64,000 nt of DNA, taken from positions 2,191 to 66,190 of the forward strand of contig WRLH01000017.1 of assembly GCA_009777715.1 (NCBI GenBank). The letters are read 5' to 3'. Of this stretch, positions 2,626 through 44,794 are shown piece by piece. How positions within the stretch are numbered: the stretch's first letter is position 1; every line of letters starts with the position of its first letter. This DNA is from Lachnospiraceae bacterium (lineage in GTDB: Bacteria > Bacillota > Clostridia > Lachnospirales > Lachnospiraceae). The notes below the pieces were generated by a model, which worked only from the letters and a program-made list of their open reading frames with translations, searched no databases and had not been told where the DNA came from. Position numbers and translations under genes: made by a program.

Positions 2626-3474
2626 TTATGTAAGCTTAAAAGCTTTAATTGATTCAGTTACTAGCTTTTTGAAGCGCGGAGCAGCTTCATTTGCCGCTTC
2701 CTGCACTTCCTCATGCGTAAGCGGTGTTTCCGAAAGCCCGGCCGCCGGATTGCAAACACAAGATACCCCACATACTTTCATGCCCATGTGGTTTGCCGCT
2801 ATTGCTTCAACCGCCGTACTCATTCCGACAGCGGAAGCCCCCATTGCTTTAAACATCATGACTTCGGCCGGAGTTTCAAAGGAAGGGCCGGCCGCCTGGC
2901 CGTAAATGCCTTCGGGCAAGGGAATGTTTAGGCTGGCTGCTGTGACGCGGATAATATCATTTAACTCAGGGCGGTAAACCGTGCTCATGTCCGGGAAGCG
3001 CGTTCCAAGCTCATCAACATTTGCGCCAGTTAAGGGATTGGTCACAAAACTGCTGATATGGTCAGTAATCAGCATTAAAGTGCCAGCTTTCATATCCGCG
3101 CCGATACCGCCGGAAGCATTGGTGAGAAAAAGTATCTCTGCCCCTAATAAGCCCATCAGGCGGATTGGCAAGACAACATCGGAAATATGGTAGCCCTCAT
3201 AAAAATGAACCCGCCCTTTCATGCAGATAACCGGGACATCTTCGACATAACCAAAAACGAATTTCCCGGCGTGTCCCTCAACCGTTGATTGGGGGAAGCC
3301 ATCTATCTCGGCATAGTCAAGTTCGGCGCAAATCTTCATCGTTTCGGCATAATCACCTAGGCCAGAACCAAGCACCAAGGCAAGTTTTGGCTTAAAATCA
3401 GCAATGCCGGCGTTTTTTTGGAAATCAATTATGCTTTGTTTGCATTTAAGTAATTTTTCGTAAATTGGGTTCAT
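2626..3474 (-). CDS. punA: Purine nucleoside phosphorylase (trimeric PNP-I type)
   Basis: 282 aa. Motifs LGSGLG, EGHAGKFVFG, RVHFYEGY, LTNASGG, GPSFETPAE and GMSTAVE are characteristic of inosine/guanosine PNP. Confidence 0.9.
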   Translation of the reverse strand: MNPIYEKLLKCKQSIIDFQKNAGIADFKPKLALVLGSGLGDYAETMKICAELDYAEIDGFPQSTVEGHAGKFVFGYVEDVPVICMKGRVHFYEGYHISDVVLPIRLMGLLGAEILFLTNASGGIGADMKAGTLMLITDHISSFVTNPLTGANVDELGTRFPDMSTVYRPELNDIIRVTAASLNIPLPEGIYGQAAGPSFETPAEVMMFKAMGASAVGMSTAVEAIAANHMGMKVCGVSCVCNPAAGLSETPLTHEEVQEAANEAAPRFKKLVTESIKAFKLT

Positions 3475-32552: not shown

Positions 32553-33773
32553 TTACTCCCCCAGCACCTTAAGGACAAGCTCCGCGATTTTCTGATGCCC
32601 CAGCGGATTCGGGTGAATGATGTCAAAGCTTAAATTCATCTTAGCAAGGTCAAGATAATAATTCATCAGCTCGCTTAAAGCTTCCATGTCAGCAAAGATT
32701 AAGTCAACGTCAGCGATCAAATAACCATAATTTTGCTCTGTAAAATTTTTTTGCTCTGTAAAATTTTTTTGCTCTGTAAAATTTTTTTGCTCTGTAAAAT
32801 TTTTTTGCTCTGCAAAATGATGCCCTGCAAAAATAATTTCATTAATTGCCTGTGTGTATGCCCCGGCTTGCCCGGCCAGATCAAGCTCTAACCCTAGCAC
32901 CGCTTCGGGAATTGGGTTGTAAAGCGTGTTGACAACGAGGGTTGCGCTGGGGGCATTCTCCTTAAGCCATGCGATAATTTCTGAAAACTCGGCCGCAAAA
33001 TCAGCGATTCCCTCTTCCATCTCGGCGGTCAATTCTTCGGGCAAAGGGCCTGCTAAAACCGCCAGCGGATTATTGGCGTTAAGCTCGTTCATGCGGGCAA
33101 AAATTTCCATTGAATCACCAAAAATTAAGGTTGCCCTTTGCAAAAATTCCCCGATTCTAAGTAAGTCAGACAAAGAAAAATTCTCCGATATGCCTTGAAG
33201 TTCAGCATTCAGCCCCTCAAATTCCCCGGCCACGCCCATGGCGTCAATCGCAATCGTGCCAACATCGGCAATCATGTCCGTGATGGCCTGGAAATCCGGA
33301 AGATAACTTATCATGGGCTTAAGGATATTGTTTCCGCCGATATTAAGGGAAATAATCCGCGCATTATTAATGGCATTAAGTTCATCTGCGTTCAAGCTAG
33401 AAAGCTGTTCCAGAAGCATTCCGGTTGTTAGCCCGGTTGCGCTAAAATTCTCGTAACGGTTCACGTCGCCTAATTCACTAAGCCGCTCAAAGACCAAATC
33501 CGGGTATCGCTCTTCTAAGGAAACGCCGTACCCGGCCGGGATTGAATCACCCAGCGCGATAAAAAAAAGCGGCTCGGGCTCTGGCTCTGGTTCTGGCTCT
33601 ACCTGCGCTTCCTCAAGGGTCAAAAAATCAAACGCACCGCTTCCCTCTTGCTGGCCCAGATTTAAGTTTTGCCCCTCATTATTTTTCTTAAGCAGCACGG
33701 CAATAATAACACCTGTTATTAAAAGGCACAAGATGAGGAATAAGATGATGACTTGATAAGTTGTTTTTTTCAT
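32553..33773 (-). CDS. Membrane-anchored SGNH/GDSL-family hydrolase
   Basis: 406 aa. Has an N-terminal TM helix, block I FIALGDSIPAGYG, block III GGNN and a C-terminal HPNPLGH. It contains an internal (EQKNFT)n repeat. Confidence 0.75.
   Translation of the reverse strand: MKKTTYQVIILFLILCLLITGVIIAVLLKKNNEGQNLNLGQQEGSGAFDFLTLEEAQVEPEPEPEPEPLFFIALGDSIPAGYGVSLEERYPDLVFERLSELGDVNRYENFSATGLTTGMLLEQLSSLNADELNAINNARIISLNIGGNNILKPMISYLPDFQAITDMIADVGTIAIDAMGVAGEFEGLNAELQGISENFSLSDLLRIGEFLQRATLIFGDSMEIFARMNELNANNPLAVLAGPLPEELTAEMEEGIADFAAEFSEIIAWLKENAPSATLVVNTLYNPIPEAVLGLELDLAGQAGAYTQAINEIIFAGHHFAEQKNFTEQKNFTEQKNFTEQKNFTEQNYGYLIADVDLIFADMEALSELMNYYLDLAKMNLSFDIIHPNPLGHQKIAELVLKVLGE
32733..32818 (-). 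repeat. In-frame 18-bp tandem repeat x4.7 (TTGCTCTGTAAAATTTTT) inside the SGNH hydrolase gene
   Basis: Units are at 32733, 32751, 32769 and 32787, with a partial unit at 32805. It encodes FTEQKNFTEQKNFTEQKNFTEQKNFTEQN. Confidence 0.9.
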
Positions 33774-35608: not shown

Positions 35609-35721
35609 GATTGCGGGTCAAGCCCGCAATGACGTAAAATGGGGTCATTCCGCAATGACGTAAAAGGGGGTCATTCCGCAATGACGTAAAAGGGGGTCAT
35701 TGCGGCCTCCGAGCCGCAATC
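35609..35721. repeat. REP cluster: REP(+) 35609-35633, two collapsed copies GTCATTCCGCAATGAC (35644-35659, 35670-35685) within a 26-bp tandem unit, REP(-) 35696-35721
   Basis: Read directly from the sequence. The last REP overlaps the stop codon of the 674-aa gene. Confidence 0.9.
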
Positions 35722-37721
35722 TCCTCAATCTCCCATAAATAAGCGGCCGACACATACGCGGTCGGTATACTGCTAGTATAATTAATCGCTGCCCAGCCAT
35801 TGCTTATCCCGGTCACCCTGACGATGTCCCCGGCGCGTAAAGTGCCGACAACCCTGCCATTCATGCCCGGCGCGTTCCGGACAAACAAGCGCGAAGCCGG
35901 GCTTATGTTAACAGCATATGCCGTCACCTGACCAAGGCTTACTTCTGTTTCCAAAGGCCTGACAGGTCCGCTAAGATGGTTAAGGTACATGACTGCCAGC
36001 CATGTCCCGGTATGGGCAAGCACCCACTCGCCATCAGGGCTAAATTCGATTATCTCAACAACCGTCCCCCTTGCCAATCTGCCGACCAGCGGGAAATGAG
36101 TTCCCGGCCCGCTTCTTTCATTTAAAAAATTCGCATTGACAGTATATAAAGACTTGGCTGGCGTTGGTGGCTCTGGCTTTTTACTCACTTCCTGCGTAAC
36201 TATTATATTTGCCACGTTTGACCGATACCGCACCGCTCCGCCAATCAAACTGCCCGATCCGCGGAAACCGTTTGTCCAGCTCTCTATCACGCCGTGATTC
36301 CTGACCGTGCCGCCATTATAAAGTGTTACTCCGTTGGGGATGTTAAGGACCGAAGTCCCCGGTATATTAAGCGTATAACCCTCCGCAATGATCAAATTTT
36401 CACTTAGCGTCACATTGCCATAAACCGTTGCCTTATCATCTTCAAACAAGATTCCCCGTGAACCGGGGGCGGCAATTAATGGGGAAAATATATCAAATGA
36501 AGAAAGATCAGAAAGTACCGCTGATGACGCATATATCATCAGGTTGTCTTTTATGATCAGGCTTCCTGCTGTCACAATGCCGCCCGTTTGATCACTGCCT
36601 GCTCCGCCTGTGATCTGCCCCACCGGGCCGTTTCCGGAGAATGTAATAATGCTTGCAGCTCCACCACTTGTAACAATCCCTCTTTCGCCGCCGCTAATTG
36701 CCCCTGTCGTACCCGAAATAGTGATGTTCCGGCCGGTAATTCCGCTCGATTCGGTTCCGCTAACCGACCAGGCTTCGCAAAAATTGACAACACCCCCCCC
36801 CGCCAATGCCCAAATTCCATTGCCACCGCCGGAAATGTTTCCGATCGTGCCGCCAATTGTGACGTTCATGGCCAAAATGCCGTTAATTGTAGCGGAAATG
36901 CTTTCTACTTCCCCGCCAATGGTGATATTGCCGTTATTAGCCCAAATGCCATGGGCAGGAGGGCCTAAGTCGAAAATGGTAATGCCGCTTATCGCCCCGG
37001 TTGATCCTAAGATGGTGACATTACCAAGATAGGCTTCAATTGCACTCGCTATCCCCGAAATATTCCCCGTCCTGCCCTCAATGGTAACGCTTTGATTGGC
37101 TAAAATTCCGTTTCTATCCGTCCCGGTAATATTGCCAACGTCTCCGGAGATAATAATATTGCCGGCCGCCGACCTAATGCCAGTATTACCGCTAATAGCC
37201 AAAACCGTGCCGGAGATTATGATATCGTTAACCGCGTAAATACCGGTGCCGCCTGTTGCGCCTGTTGCTGAAATACTGCCGATGCTTCCATCGATTGTCA
37301 CATTCCCAAAAGCCTCAAGTCCGCTCATGGATAATTTTGACTCAATAACAATATCCTCACCTTGGCCGCGGATAATGGCGTCTTCATACAGGACTAGCGC
37401 AGGATAATTAACCTCGCTGGTAATCTTCGTGCCCGGGGAAAGGGTAATGTCTTTGGCGTGCGTAACTACGACCGGGCGGCCGCCACTATCGCCGGCAAGG
37501 AGAATTGCGTCCGGGGTAGCTATCATGATGATATTTCCCCCGGCACCAGAATCTCCGTGGATAAAAAAGCCTTCGCCAACATAACCGTCCGGCAAAGCCG
37601 CCAGTGCCGTCAGGTCAAACACAGTGGGCATGGGTGCCGGACTGGCGTATGCCGCTTTTGGGATTAGTAAGGCAAACGCTAGGGCTAGCAATGCCAATAA
37701 TGGGTAAAATCGTTTCTTCAT
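35697..37721 (-). CDS. Secreted beta-helix-repeat protein with two C-terminal SH3b domains (paralogue P1)
   Basis: 674 aa. Has a signal peptide (...AAYA/SPAP) and roughly 20-residue periodic G.I.I.G..G.I.G...GI repeats. A PEPPTPAK linker is followed by two SH3b-like modules (YTVNANFLNERSGPG...; VNISPASRLFVRNAPGMNG...). Confidence 0.7.
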   Translation of the reverse strand: MKKRFYPLLALLALAFALLIPKAAYASPAPMPTVFDLTALAALPDGYVGEGFFIHGDSGAGGNIIMIATPDAILLAGDSGGRPVVVTHAKDITLSPGTKITSEVNYPALVLYEDAIIRGQGEDIVIESKLSMSGLEAFGNVTIDGSIGSISATGATGGTGIYAVNDIIISGTVLAISGNTGIRSAAGNIIISGDVGNITGTDRNGILANQSVTIEGRTGNISGIASAIEAYLGNVTILGSTGAISGITIFDLGPPAHGIWANNGNITIGGEVESISATINGILAMNVTIGGTIGNISGGGNGIWALAGGGVVNFCEAWSVSGTESSGITGRNITISGTTGAISGGERGIVTSGGAASIITFSGNGPVGQITGGAGSDQTGGIVTAGSLIIKDNLMIYASSAVLSDLSSFDIFSPLIAAPGSRGILFEDDKATVYGNVTLSENLIIAEGYTLNIPGTSVLNIPNGVTLYNGGTVRNHGVIESWTNGFRGSGSLIGGAVRYRSNVANIIVTQEVSKKPEPPTPAKSLYTVNANFLNERSGPGTHFPLVGRLARGTVVEIIEFSPDGEWVLAHTGTWLAVMYLNHLSGPVRPLETEVSLGQVTAYAVNISPASRLFVRNAPGMNGRVVGTLRAGDIVRVTGISNGWAAINYTSSIPTAYVSAAYLWEIEEIAARRPQ

Positions 37722-37827: not shown

Positions 37828-40158
37828 CTAATTCTGCCGCAAATACTGCGCCGACACATAAGCGGTCGGTATGCCGCTGGTATAATTAATCGTCGCCCAG
37901 CCATTGCTTAACCCGGTCACCCTGACAATGTCCCCGGCGCGTAAAGTGCCGACTATCCGTCCGTTCATGCCCGGCGCGTTCCGGACAAACAGGCGCGAGG
38001 CCGGGCTTATATTAACGGCATATGCCATTACGCGGCCTGGGCTTGCTTCTGTTTCTAATGGCCTGACAGGGCCGCTAAGATGGTTAAGGTACATTAATGA
38101 CAGCCACGTCCCGGTATGGGCAAGCACCCAATCGCCATCAGGGCTAAATTCGATTATCTCTACAACCGTCCCCCTTGCCAATCTGCCGACTAGTGGGAAA
38201 TGAGTCCCCGGCCCGCTTCTTTCATTTAAAAAAGTAGCATTGACTGTATATAGAGACTTGGCTGGCGTTGGTGGATCTGGCTGTTCAGCCACTTCTGCTT
38301 GGGCTGCTGTATTTGGCACATTTGACCGATAACGCACTGGTGTGCCAATCAAAGTGCCGCTTCCACCAAAACCGCCGATCCGGCTTTCGATCACGCCATG
38401 ATTAATAATCGTCCCATTATTCGTTAATGTAATCCAGTTGGGAATCGTTAAAACGCTTCCTTGCGGTATGGTCAGCGTCTGGTATTCCCCAATCGTTAGG
38501 CTGTGCTTTAGCGTCACATTGCCGTAGACTGTGCATTCGTTATGGCTAAGCAAGATCCCTTGTGAACCAGGGGCCGGAAAGCTAGGGACTTCGCCGCTTA
38601 TTGAAGAGTCCCATGTCCAAACTGACGACGCATAAACAACGCGGCTGTCTTTTAGCACGAGGTCTCCGTACACGCTATAAATGCCGCCATCCCCCCCCCC
38701 GATCTGCCCGGTCGTGCCGTTTCCGGAAATGATGACATCGCCAGAACGTACGGCAATGCCTTTGCCGTCAGTTCCGCCATTTATCGCGCCGGTTGTCCCA
38801 GAGATAAGGACCCCGCCACTGTCTGAATTAATGCCGCCCAGGCCGCCATAAATGCTCCCCGTCGTCCCGGAAATAGTGACTCCAAGAGTTGCAACAAGGC
38901 CTCCACCGGAATCTCCGCCGCTAATCGCGCCGGTAGTCCCGGAGATTGTAATATCCCCCGCTCCTGCGCGGATGCCGTTAATTGTTCCTTGTATTCTCTC
39001 TGTCCTGCCAGCGATGGTGACATCTCCTGATTGTGTAATAATTCCATTAAAGGCACCGTAAATGTTCCCGGTCTGGCCCAGGATGGTGATATTGCCGTTA
39101 TTAGCTATAATGCCGCTCCCGCTGGGGCCCATGCCGCCAATATCGCCGAACGTCCCGGTTAGCGTAACGCCATTTACTGCGCCGATGGCGTGATTTCCAT
39201 GGCCGTAGATGTTAACGTCGCTGCCATCACCCCTTACAACTGCTTCGTGGTTAAGCCTTAGGGCCGGTTCAGTCGTCGAATCGCTCATAATCTTTGTCCC
39301 GGCCGCCAAGGTTATGTCTGTCGCATAAGTAATGACGACCGAGCGGCCGCCGCTATCGCCGGTCAGGATAATCGGCACGTTGTTTTCGGTAATGATAATG
39401 TTATTAAGGCTAATCATCCAGCTTGGGCCGGCAGCATTGTCAGGCGCAGCTGACAGTTCATCAAGGTCAAAAGTCATCGGGGGAGCGGCTGTCCATGTCG
39501 CCGTATACCACCGATGGCCAAAGGATCCAACCGGGATATGGACGCTCATCGTTGGTTCTGAAAGCCCTGTCCCCGTCCAGCCGGCAAAGGTAAAGTTTTG
39601 CTTGGTCGGGTTATTTAAGGTAATCGACTGATGATCCATAAAGCTTCCATAAATCGAAAACTGGACTGGGTTAGGGGTTAATGGGTTGACTGTCCCGCCG
39701 TCAAGGTCATAGAATATATCGTAAAGCACAGCACCCCACTCCGCTTGGACCGATATGTCGGAAGTAACAACGGTGTCAGCATCAAACGGCTCGATGCCTG
39801 TACCCGGATTATATAACCAGCCGTGGAAATAAAAACCGTCTCGCTCCGGGTCAGCCGGAAACCTCGTCCCTACTGTCTCGCCGTCAGCTACCGAGATGAC
39901 GATATTACCCGGATTAGGGGTGTAACCGTGGAAAAAAGTGACCGTGTGAGTGCCGGAGGCCCAGACGTTAAGCGTAAATGCCAGCATTAGCGTTAGCGTC
40001 AGAGCCAGTGTCAGCACCAGCCTCACCAGCACTGCACCAGCGTTAGCGTTAGCACTGGCGTTAGGGCCTGCGTTAGCACTGGCGTTAGCCCCTGCGTTAG
40101 CACTGGCGTTAGGGCTAAAGATTTTAGGATTTGGGGGGAAATTTGCTTTTGGTTTCAT
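37828..40158 (-). CDS. Secreted protein: low-complexity N-terminus, two Listeria-Bacteroides-type repeats, beta-helix repeats, two C-terminal SH3b domains (paralogue P2)
   Basis: 776 aa. HTVTFF...DGFYFHGW... and YDIFYDLDGG...FTFAGWTG resemble Flg_new-type repeats. The passenger and C-terminal modules are homologous to P1 and P3. Confidence 0.7.
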   Translation of the reverse strand: MKPKANFPPNPKIFSPNASANAGANASANAGPNASANANAGAVLVRLVLTLALTLTLMLAFTLNVWASGTHTVTFFHGYTPNPGNIVISVADGETVGTRFPADPERDGFYFHGWLYNPGTGIEPFDADTVVTSDISVQAEWGAVLYDIFYDLDGGTVNPLTPNPVQFSIYGSFMDHQSITLNNPTKQNFTFAGWTGTGLSEPTMSVHIPVGSFGHRWYTATWTAAPPMTFDLDELSAAPDNAAGPSWMISLNNIIITENNVPIILTGDSGGRSVVITYATDITLAAGTKIMSDSTTEPALRLNHEAVVRGDGSDVNIYGHGNHAIGAVNGVTLTGTFGDIGGMGPSGSGIIANNGNITILGQTGNIYGAFNGIITQSGDVTIAGRTERIQGTINGIRAGAGDITISGTTGAISGGDSGGGLVATLGVTISGTTGSIYGGLGGINSDSGGVLISGTTGAINGGTDGKGIAVRSGDVIISGNGTTGQIGGGDGGIYSVYGDLVLKDSRVVYASSVWTWDSSISGEVPSFPAPGSQGILLSHNECTVYGNVTLKHSLTIGEYQTLTIPQGSVLTIPNWITLTNNGTIINHGVIESRIGGFGGSGTLIGTPVRYRSNVPNTAAQAEVAEQPDPPTPAKSLYTVNATFLNERSGPGTHFPLVGRLARGTVVEIIEFSPDGDWVLAHTGTWLSLMYLNHLSGPVRPLETEASPGRVMAYAVNISPASRLFVRNAPGMNGRIVGTLRAGDIVRVTGLSNGWATINYTSGIPTAYVSAQYLRQN

Positions 40159-42310: not shown

Positions 42311-44794
42311 TCACCTTTGGTCAATCTCCTGCAAATACCGCGCCGCCACATACGCGGTCGGTATACCACTAGTATAATTAATCGCCGCCCAGCCATTGCT
42401 TAATCCGGTCACCCTGACGATGTCCCCGGCGCGTAAAGTGCCGACTATCCGCCCATTCATGCCCGGCGCGTTCCGGACAAACAGGCGCGAGGCCGGGCTT
42501 ATATTAACAGCATATGCCGTCACCCGCTCTTGGCTTGCTTCTGTTTCTAAAGGCCGGACCGGCCCGCTAAGATGGTTAAGGTAATTAACTGACAGCCACG
42601 TTCCGGTATGGGCAAGCACCCACTCGCCATCAGGGCTAAACTCAATTATCTCAACAACCGTCCCTCTTGCCAATCTGCCGACTAGTGGGAAACCAGTCCC
42701 CGGTCCGCTTCTTTCATTTAAATAAGTAGCATTCACAGTATAGAAAGATTTCGCGGGGGCAGGCTCTGGCTTTTCTGTCACACTCGCTGGCGGTACGCTT
42801 TGGGGCGGCGTATTCGACCGATACCGCACCGCTCCGCCGACTAAAACACCGCTTCCCCTAACGCCATCTACCCGGCTGTCAATCGTGCCATGGTTAAGAA
42901 TCGTCCCGCTGTTATTAAGCGTCCCGTTATTCGTAAGGATAATGCTTTGTGGAATCGTAAGGCTATTGCCGCTTGGCACAGACAAAGACTGGTGGCGTTG
43001 AAGAACCAAATTGCGCCTTAATGTGACATCGCCGTAAACCCTGCCGCTTGGGAAATCTTTTCCCCCGGTGAATAATATGCCCTGTGAATTATGGGTGGGA
43101 TTAAGGGGGACTTGATTAAAACCATCAGATGTAGATACGCCTGTCGCGTAAACGACACTATTGTTTGCGATTGTAAAGCTGTCGGCCAGAATGGCGGTCG
43201 GGATATAATGACCTGTGTATTCTAATGACGTTCCGGAGATTTGCCCCACCGTGCCGGAAATATATATATTTTCGCCCGCTTGCAGGCATATGCCAAGGCC
43301 AACATCGATATTGCCGACTGATCCGTCAATTTCAATTGATATAGAGCCATAAGGCGCATAGATAGCATTTGCGAAAGAATCAAAGTCGGAAGCTTTAATA
43401 TTACCCACCGAGCCAGAAATGATGATATCAGAGATAATGGAGATAATGGCTGGGTTGCCAATAATATTGCCGACCGTCCCATTTATATCAACCGTCCCAA
43501 CTCCTGAAATGGCTGAATTGACAGCATTTATTCCGCCAATCCGGCCAGATATTGAAATAATGTCAAATTCTCGGTTAGAATTTTGTTGTATTCCAACGCT
43601 CGCGGAAACATAATCTATATTTCCGTTTATTATTATACCCACATTTGCATAAATGCCAACTGTCCCTTTAATTAACGAGATATTGCCATCTTGGCCAATA
43701 ACAGCATTATCACACCGGATGGCAGTATGGGCTTCAATTTTATTTATCACCCCATCGATAATAACATTGCCATTTGCATGAATCCCATTGCCATAGGAAA
43801 TACCGAGCATAGAATCAACGACATCTCCGCCCCCTATAAAGCCAATCCGGGCAGTATCGGTAATCCTTGCGTTCCCCCCAGCCCGTATTCCTTCCCCGGC
43901 CGCCAACCCCTCTAAGGCCTCTATCCCGCCAATCGTGGCTGTGATGGTAATATTATCACCCAAGATGGCAACACTATTGCCAGATTGCCCTATGCTTCCG
44001 GCGTTAATGTTGCCGAATTCACCGGAAAGCGTCACATCGCCAGCGGCAAAAATGCCATGGCTGAATCCATTTATCCAAATCTCGCTGCCCTCGCCATGGA
44101 TTGTTGCACCATCTGGAACTACAAGAGCCATCCCGGCGCCCTCATTGCGCATAATCTTTGTATTATCCAAAATGGTGATGTCCAAGGACTCTTGAATAAC
44201 GACCGAGCCCATCCAATAACCACCTTTGAGGACAACAGACGAAGTGCCAAAGACGGTGATAGTATTATTAGCATAATCAACATTATAATCACTATGACCA
44301 GGAACTAGATTGTCAAAGTCAATGACAAGCGGGCATTCGCAAGGGTCTTGGCCGCAGTCAAGGCAAATTACTATGTTTACTATACATACGCAAGGGTCTT
44401 CCCCGCAGTCGGGGCATAATGCGAATAATGAGATGTCCCCGCTAAGCTCTGTAATTTTTGTGATTTCGAAGTCGGTGTTGCCGGATTGGTTGGGGTCTTC
44501 GTCTTCGATGGAATTGTTTTCCAAGGAAGTGGAATCTTCTTTGGGATTATTTTCGATGGAAAGGTTTTCCATGTTGTCAATGGAAAGGTTGTTGATGGAA
44601 AGATTTTCTTTGGAAAGATTTTCCATATTGTCTAAACTCATAAGTTCTGTTGCCGCCAAAGGGAACGGCTTTAGAATCAAGGCAAAGACCAGCAGTAAGG
44701 CGATTGCTTTGGCAAATGCCTTGGCATGGGCGGGTTTGGTTAATAAGCTTTCGCGAGTATGGAGTGCTGATTTCGTGAATATATTTCGTTTCAT
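42311..44794 (-). CDS. Secreted protein: NLS-rich repeats, twin C.DCG.DPC.C motifs, beta-helix repeats, two C-terminal SH3b domains (paralogue P3)
   Basis: ATG 44794 (MKRNIFTKSAL...) lies 7 nt after AAAGGA. The track start at 44890 is unlikely. The C-terminal ~150 aa are nearly identical to P1 and P2. Confidence 0.7.
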   Translation of the reverse strand: MKRNIFTKSALHTRESLLTKPAHAKAFAKAIALLLVFALILKPFPLAATELMSLDNMENLSKENLSINNLSIDNMENLSIENNPKEDSTSLENNSIEDEDPNQSGNTDFEITKITELSGDISLFALCPDCGEDPCVCIVNIVICLDCGQDPCECPLVIDFDNLVPGHSDYNVDYANNTITVFGTSSVVLKGGYWMGSVVIQESLDITILDNTKIMRNEGAGMALVVPDGATIHGEGSEIWINGFSHGIFAAGDVTLSGEFGNINAGSIGQSGNSVAILGDNITITATIGGIEALEGLAAGEGIRAGGNARITDTARIGFIGGGDVVDSMLGISYGNGIHANGNVIIDGVINKIEAHTAIRCDNAVIGQDGNISLIKGTVGIYANVGIIINGNIDYVSASVGIQQNSNREFDIISISGRIGGINAVNSAISGVGTVDINGTVGNIIGNPAIISIISDIIISGSVGNIKASDFDSFANAIYAPYGSISIEIDGSVGNIDVGLGICLQAGENIYISGTVGQISGTSLEYTGHYIPTAILADSFTIANNSVVYATGVSTSDGFNQVPLNPTHNSQGILFTGGKDFPSGRVYGDVTLRRNLVLQRHQSLSVPSGNSLTIPQSIILTNNGTLNNSGTILNHGTIDSRVDGVRGSGVLVGGAVRYRSNTPPQSVPPASVTEKPEPAPAKSFYTVNATYLNERSGPGTGFPLVGRLARGTVVEIIEFSPDGEWVLAHTGTWLSVNYLNHLSGPVRPLETEASQERVTAYAVNISPASRLFVRNAPGMNGRIVGTLRAGDIVRVTGLSNGWAAINYTSGIPTAYVAARYLQEIDQR

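Follow-up and report, generated by a model that had tools for sequence, protein, structure and literature searches.

Is a run of nine G residues in the middle of a gene for a wall-bound protein a switch, or is it an accident of codon choice? The question is raised by a stretch of 64,000 nucleotides (nt) from a Lachnospiraceae bacterium (GenBank assembly GCA_009777715.1, contig WRLH01000017.1, positions 2,191–66,190), here called the window and used for all coordinates unless another contig is named. The gene in question, P1, lies on the minus strand (35697..37721; an open reading frame, ORF, of 2025 nt coding for 674 amino acids, aa) and contains an uninterrupted G9 tract (36793..36801; C9 on the plus strand). 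The genome is a metagenome-type assembly of 64 contigs and 3.1 Mb, with 42.9% GC and an estimated contamination of 4.6%. Its Era protein shows about 71% identity to those of Lachnospiraceae metagenome-assembled genomes, in keeping with a place of the organism in this family. The best explanation, to which we give about even confidence, is that G9 is a slippage-prone contingency tract, ON in this assembly and one of about ten such poly-G/C loci in the genome. A slipped-strand phase switch was put forward in a preliminary description of the sequence, and this reading retains the support of the gene setting, of the arithmetic of the reading frames and of a genomic context that favors mutability: long G/C runs escape depletion, six of the twelve runs found are in or beside surface, secreted-enzyme or glycan genes, one gene is split at such a run, and assembly differences are linked to others. 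The argument from improbability, on which the preliminary description also relied, was overstated, and the reading is weakened by the position of the run in mid-gene, by intact mutS and mutL genes and by equally long runs in housekeeping genes.

The coordinates and codons of the tract were confirmed from the sequence. On the coding strand the run reads GCG GGG GGG GGT and comprises the last base of Ala307 (GCG), Gly308 and Gly309 (GGG GGG) and the first two bases of Gly310 (GGT), in the context ..GIWALAGGGVVNF..; it begins at coding nucleotide 921, at 45% of the gene length, and the frame is intact with nine G. When homopolymers of at least seven are taken as candidate phase-variable tracts and those of at least eight as efficiently switching (PMC6321876), the G9 in the P1 ORF has the length of a candidate locus. 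In silico reading of the alternative frames indicated that a +1 slip (G10) leads to a TAG stop at 36760..36762 (minus strand) and to a product of 320 aa with a 10-aa out-of-frame tail, and that a -1 slip (G8) leads to a TGA stop at 36572..36574 (minus strand) and to a product of 382 aa with a 73-aa out-of-frame tail; the G8 frame is also listed as a 94-aa ORF at 36572–36856. Both tails resemble random sequence. Either product would still have the signal peptide and the initial ~280 residues of the solenoid but neither of the SH3b domains, and ~40% of the passenger would be missing at its distal end, in agreement with the earlier proposal that slippage truncates P1 ahead of its distal passenger and both anchors. 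A change of one base in either direction thus truncates the predicted protein, and the opposite change restores the frame. In the mechanism that we propose, the G9 run would gain or lose one G at replication far more often than ordinary sequence mutates; in G10 (320 aa) or G8 (382 aa) cells the wall anchors would be lost and full-length P1 would no longer be displayed, so that a slipped cell would at most release a truncated piece of P1, until a second slip restored the frame. We infer variation of the tract in the population, its reversibility and its retention by selection.

The setting of the tract in a surface-protein gene is likewise borne out. P1 starts with a predicted Sec signal peptide (residues 1–26, MKKRFYPLLALLALAFALLIPKAAYA, followed by S; 37644..37721, minus strand), judged by eye from the translation rather than with a predictor, and ends with two SH3_3 stretches (Pfam, E = 4e-17). 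These correspond to a first SH3b wall-binding domain at residues ~526–583 (35973..36146, minus strand; boundaries set by motif position) and a second at residues ~601–663 (35733..35921, minus strand; best Pfam stretch 610–662). Between them and the signal peptide lies a Gly/Ile-rich repeat passenger (residues ~30–500; 36222..37634, minus strand), for which a Pfam search returned no covering family. In an AlphaFold2 model built from a six-sequence alignment, residues ~30–305 form regular short strands with a predicted local distance difference test score (pLDDT) above 90, which fits a beta-solenoid, and the passenger beyond the tract is modeled with lower confidence. In a fold search of the PDB, the best matches of the model were beta-helix proteins (Cthe_2159, tapirins, tailspikes), none of them significant (E of at least 0.37). 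The presence of both a signal peptide and C-terminal SH3_3 domains indicates that P1 is a secreted protein, predicted to be anchored to peptidoglycan through its two SH3b domains.

The tract opens a 22-aa insertion (residues 308–329, GGGVVNFCEAWSVSGTESSGIT; 36735..36800, minus strand), whose first three residues are the glycines that it encodes. Nowhere else inside the N-terminal solenoid does the pLDDT fall below 50, and the insertion is not found in the two paralogues of P1 described below. Being P1-specific and of low pLDDT, it indicates that the position of the tract is weakly constrained at the protein level, and according to the model the gain or loss of a glycine in frame should be harmless there.

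The gene next to P1, P2 (37828–40158), codes for a product that is 51% identical to P1 over its whole length and differs very little from it in the SH3b part, and a third paralogue, P3, is found at 42311–44794. P2 has a sister tract, G10, at 38691..38700 (minus strand; C10 on the plus strand), read as ATC GGG GGG GGG GAT and spanning Gly487–489; at the homologous site of P3, which also encodes IGGGD, the run is interrupted (ATA GGG GGC GGA GAT). Among the 33 Gly-Gly or Gly-Gly-Gly sites of P1, P2 and P3, 31 have interrupted codons, mostly with GGC first, and uninterrupted GGG codons are limited to site 308 of P1 and site 487 of P2. The tracts of P1 and P2 occupy non-homologous positions and, therefore, arose independently.

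How unusual is such a run? In the window there are two G/C runs of at least nine, those of P1 and P2, as compared with 0.17 expected from independent bases (P about 0.012), and the whole genome has 12 against about 4.6 expected in the same way. With the amino acids held fixed and a codon usage in which 23% of Gly codons are GGG, P1 has a ~3.5% chance of carrying a run of at least nine and P2 a ~1.4% chance of carrying one of at least ten; additionally, when synonymous codons were shuffled (200 replicates), 9.6 runs of at least nine were predicted in genes, of which 9 are found. The G9 run is thus unusual locally, yet it is not "very unlikely" genome-wide, and the statement to that effect in the preliminary description was overstated because the chance for P1 is ~3.5% and the genome-wide counts match those of codon shuffling. 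The informative signal is instead the shape of the length distribution. Relative to codon shuffling, the observed/expected ratio for G/C runs decreases from 0.90 at length 5 to 0.75, 0.48 and 0.23 at lengths 6, 7 and 8, and then rebounds to 0.74 at length 9 and 1.42 at length 10, with one run of length 12 against 0.22 expected. If the depletion at length 8 held for longer runs, about 2.2 G/C runs of at least nine would be expected in genes, compared with the 9 seen. There is no such rebound for A/T runs in genes, with 21 of length 9 against 139 expected (0.15) and none of length 10 against 43. Therefore, G/C runs of at least nine escape the depletion that reduces 7- and 8-mers 2- to 4-fold.

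This distribution bears directly on the main rival explanation, that the tract is an accidental homopolymer produced by synonymous drift in a Gly-rich, tolerant loop and that slipped alleles are purged as loss-of-function mutants. We regard this as a serious alternative, with a probability somewhat short of even. The ~3.5% chance for P1 and a number of runs in genes close to that predicted speak for it; however, the same purifying pressure that depletes 7- and 8-mers should act harder on 9- and 10-mers, and it did not. Likewise, accident has to account for independent long runs in the adjacent genes P1 and P2, with a joint chance of about 5e-4, or ~3e-3 when any pair among the three paralogues is counted (a post hoc calculation), while every other Gly-Gly or Gly-Gly-Gly site in P1–P3 is interrupted, and for the tract-linked assembly differences and the tract-split gene found elsewhere in the genome.

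Besides the runs of P1 (G9, 36793–36801) and P2 (G10, 38691–38700), both on contig C17, the genome contains ten others. A G10 lies where the signal peptide ends in a large secreted enzyme, a GH10-like xylanase (C32:3351); a G12 occupies codons 10–13 of a gene for a GtrB-like glycosyltransferase of family GT2 with a GtrA transmembrane domain (C15:22937–22948); a C9, which on the coding strand encodes PPP, lies at codon ~55 of a gene for a DUF6056/GT_STM0557_N membrane protein in a Glf-GT2-GtrA glycan locus (C8:67547–67555); and a G10 lies just 3′ of a GtrII glucosyltransferase gene (C8:97294–97303). Together with P1 and P2, these account for the six of 12 long runs in or beside genes for secreted, surface or glycan-modification functions, by a classification made post hoc. 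The remaining runs are a G9 within an S-adenosylmethionine (SAM) methyltransferase gene (C13:34490–34498), a C9 that precedes the end of a DNA methyltransferase gene by eight codons (C31:2723), a C10 in a prophage ORF beside the terminase gene (C59:8759), a G9 at 4 nt from a contig end (C16:68083), and two runs in housekeeping genes, a C10 in a RapZ-like P-loop gene (C13:55217–55226; PPP at codon 33) and a C9 in a PurF-like amidotransferase gene (C16:47563–47571; GGG on the coding strand).

The SAM methyltransferase gene (C13:34324–35093, class I) is split exactly at its G9 run, into an N-terminal piece of 58 aa that matches positions 3–23 of Methyltransf_31 and a C-terminal piece of 201 aa, in another frame, that matches positions 29–109; a G10 would rejoin the two pieces into a single ORF. 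From its organization, this gene may be a contingency gene in the OFF state or a fixed pseudogene, and its G9 has the same length in a contig of the metagenome assembly JGI 3300002469. The G10 downstream of the GtrII glucosyltransferase gene starts 19 nt past the stop codon, just after a GTG preceded by a Shine-Dalgarno-like motif (GAGGGG), and it may be a start-proximal switch, given that a G11 would let this GTG read into the downstream ORF of 154 aa. Orthologues of the GT2 and of the methyltransferase are essentially absent from the genus, with one 46% match that begins after the tract position. G/C runs of at least nine occur in all eight other genomes searched in the genus (G001–G008), and G001 alone has at least 14 different ones, the longest of 13; no such run is present in several other genera of the family, in a comparison made without control for GC content.

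Two further assemblies, ENA ERZ27257348 and JGI 3300002469, were brought in by exact-protein look-ups, which for the regions near other tracts used a UDP-glucose dehydrogenase, a GT2 (234 aa), a methyltransferase and a 604-aa membrane protein, all encoded next to these tracts. Their contigs are 99.98–100% identical to this genome over about 60 kb of pairwise comparison, and from this identity they hold essentially the same strain. At the C9 of the DUF6056 gene, the JGI contig (L113, positions 1–12) opens inside the run with C12 and matches this genome without any other difference over 4588 nt. At the G12 of the GT2 gene, an ENA contig (L115, positions 1–13) opens inside the run with G12 and an extra T and shows no mismatch in 6.9 kb. 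Finally, ENA contig k141_195608 differs from the window by two single-nucleotide polymorphisms in 8355 nt, passes through P2 and its G10 intact, and terminates at ...GGGCATTG, 2 nt before the G9 of P1. That three contig ends fall so close to long runs, within a few bases, cannot be chance; it points either to sampled populations with mixed tract lengths or to runs that are systematically hard to read. A general tendency of this genome's own assembly to break at long runs was rejected, as only one of its 128 contig ends touches one.

For P1 itself, the end of k141_195608 is only suggestive of mutability because it precedes the run, unlike what simple length polymorphism predicts. We also considered the presence or absence of the 22-aa insertion as the cause of this break; there is no flanking direct repeat, and the only repeat is a 7-mer inside the insertion. 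The other ENA contig of the region, L004, restarts only in the 3′ SH3b region of P1, and its first ~103 nt are paralogue-like; this break is due to the paralogue repeat and not to the tract. These first ~103 nt resemble P3 (94%), and all sequence downstream is identical to this genome. In the corresponding part of the window (35850–35953, ~100 nt at the end of P1's second SH3b region), there are 13 mismatches and one single-base gap with respect to positions 1–103 of L004, a pattern that suggests either a chimeric assembly or conversion between paralogous genes. Separately, a small rearrangement or indel near position 32767 (within ~32750–32790) distinguishes this genome from L004 (~3135–3190), with BLAST segments that overlap by about 50 nt.

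Several observations weigh against a contingency tract in P1, most of them in favor of accident. As indicated above, the genes hold no more long G/C runs than codon shuffling predicts, and runs as long as that of P1 are present in the RapZ-like (C10) and PurF-like (C9) housekeeping genes. The run lies at 45% of the gene, and repeats are generally suppressed in mid-gene and enriched near the termini (PMC3315296); likewise, efficient inactivation and selected switches favor the 5′ end (PMC2831843). The tract also opens a low-confidence loop specific to P1 and absent from its paralogues, a setting that would tolerate a neutral Gly run. Genes for MutS (884 aa) and MutL (621 aa) are both uninterrupted in the genome and, therefore, slippage would be expected nearer to the rates of swrA in Bacillus subtilis than to those of Campylobacter or Helicobacter; in that mismatch-repair-proficient Firmicute, an A8/A9 run in swrA switches at 1e-5 to 1e-4 (PMC2831843). 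The lengths of the P2 G10, the C8 G10 and the C8 C9 are unchanged between this genome and ERZ27257348. Moreover, k141_195608 ends before the P1 run and not inside it, where length heterogeneity should break a de Bruijn graph.

The other two alternatives are minor rivals. An assembly or sequencing artefact, whereby the true tract length or the downstream sequence differs or two haplotypes were joined at the run, gains some credit from the fragmented, metagenome-type nature and estimated contamination of the assembly, from the stop of the independent ENA assembly at the P1 tract and from one contig of this genome that ends 4 nt past another G9. We nonetheless consider it improbable, as the G9 frame stays open for 364 further codons into two SH3b domains that closely match those of P2 and P3; a P1 tract miscalled by ±1 would not let the frame reach these domains, and the single contig end among 128 that touches a long run argues in the same direction. 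Slippage at the RNA level, by polymerase stutter or ribosomal frameshifting at G9, which would yield full-length P1 and minority forms of 320 and 382 aa from unchanged DNA, is about as improbable: homopolymers of about nine are known sites of transcriptional slippage, as in the poly(A) case of Buchnera (Orsi et al., PMC2831843), and the truncated forms would still have the signal peptide and, in the model, an N-terminal solenoid that is well folded, but no homologue, conserved alternative frame or stimulatory element speaks for a programmed event, and the out-of-frame tails look random.

The distribution of P1 was assessed by additional searches. A DNA search of 40 related genomes returned nothing outside this genome except for a 34-nt match of 88% identity in one of them (G030; E 1.1e-4), and searches of the same genomes with the protein returned matches to the SH3b domains only. 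In a search of 5.8 billion proteins, P1 retrieved just itself, P2 and four relatives of at most 39% identity. Searches with the N-terminal 306-aa piece and with a mid piece gave no match, although the products of cut genes are apparently not indexed there. No match was found either in JGI metagenome contigs, using the flank pattern and the protein, or in GTDB genome contigs. Exact-protein look-ups of P1, LysS, the GT2 and RapZ found none on record; that of GreA retrieved a single 1.2-kb JGI contig, and those of the neighboring glucokinase (glcK) and of P2 retrieved one ERZ27257348 contig each (L004 and k141_195608, or L005, respectively). Besides this genome, P1 is thus seen in a single ENA assembly, in a contig that stops 2 nt short of the tract. 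On these searches, the P1 passenger is species-specific, without an orthologue in anything searched.

A more far-reaching reading can be built on the contingency tract. We can envisage, as an unlikely speculation, an uncultured, mismatch-repair-proficient Lachnospiraceae of a termite-gut-type community with a small "phasome" of about ten loci, comprising Gtr-type glycan modifiers, a methyltransferase, the secreted xylanase and the paralogous wall proteins P1 and P2. Given where their runs lie in the genes, P1 and P2 would then not just be turned off but would toggle between a wall-anchored form and a released, anchor-less beta-solenoid fragment. Should P1, P2 and the other runs switch, the wall proteins and surface glycans of an uncultured, fiber-degrading Lachnospiraceae would be subject to stochastic variation in spite of intact mismatch repair, with a bearing on phage and host pressure in gut communities, and frameshifts and contig breaks at such runs in metagenome-assembled genomes would be biology and not error. 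If the P1 run does not switch, it is an ordinary accident of codon choice.

Homopolymer contingency loci are, to our knowledge, textbook cases in a handful of pathogens and poorly documented in gut commensal Clostridia; the kind of locus is well known, and the P1 tract would be a new, as yet unproven case. As far as we know, Campylobacter jejuni and C. coli have no MutS/MutL-type mismatch repair, in contrast to the repair genes present here. In Campylobacter, poly-G runs of at least eight drive phase variation, and lengths 9 and 10 dominate (PMC6321876, the PhasomeIt survey). The poly-G genes of C. jejuni and C. coli resemble P1 in that the runs are intragenic and mostly of G on the coding strand, and a frameshift truncates the product (PMC6321876). 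They also lean, as do the long runs described here, toward functions in surface structures and glycan modification (PMC6321876). However, variation in Campylobacter was shown experimentally and between isolates, and its runs are far above chance, whereas here an excess is seen only as an escape from depletion.

Among Gram-positive bacteria, the sialidase gene nanH3 of Gardnerella is similar to P1 in that a G/C homopolymer lies in the ORF of a wall-associated extracellular protein, which is made in full-length or truncated form. Cloned and sequenced copies of its tract were heterogeneous in length within cultures, and the catalytic domain is missing from the truncated form (bioRxiv 10.1101/2020.09.16.300947). 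By comparison, the run of P1 lies in mid-gene, slippage would remove the anchors and the distal passenger, and the switch is a candidate read from the sequence. Reversible homopolymer frameshifts that inactivate a gene for a surface or behavior trait are also known from repair-proficient Firmicutes, at ~1e-7 to 1e-4, in the inlA gene of Listeria monocytogenes (A7/A6) and in swrA of B. subtilis (A8/A9) (Orsi et al. 2010, PMC2831843). There, in contrast to the poly(G) at codon 307 of 674 in P1, the tracts are of poly(A) and lie in the first ~10 codons, such that very short peptides result (PMC2831843). Finally, the lgt and pgtA genes of Neisseria contain poly-G tracts in glycosyltransferase coding sequences that switch surface structures and, as with P1, are not confined to the extreme 5′ end (PMC2192423, PMC2193922). 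These are Gram-negative pathogens in which switching is proven, whereas P1 is a predicted structural wall protein and not an enzyme; a closer analogue of lgt and pgtA in this genome is the gene for the GtrB-like GT2 with its G12 tract, outside the window.

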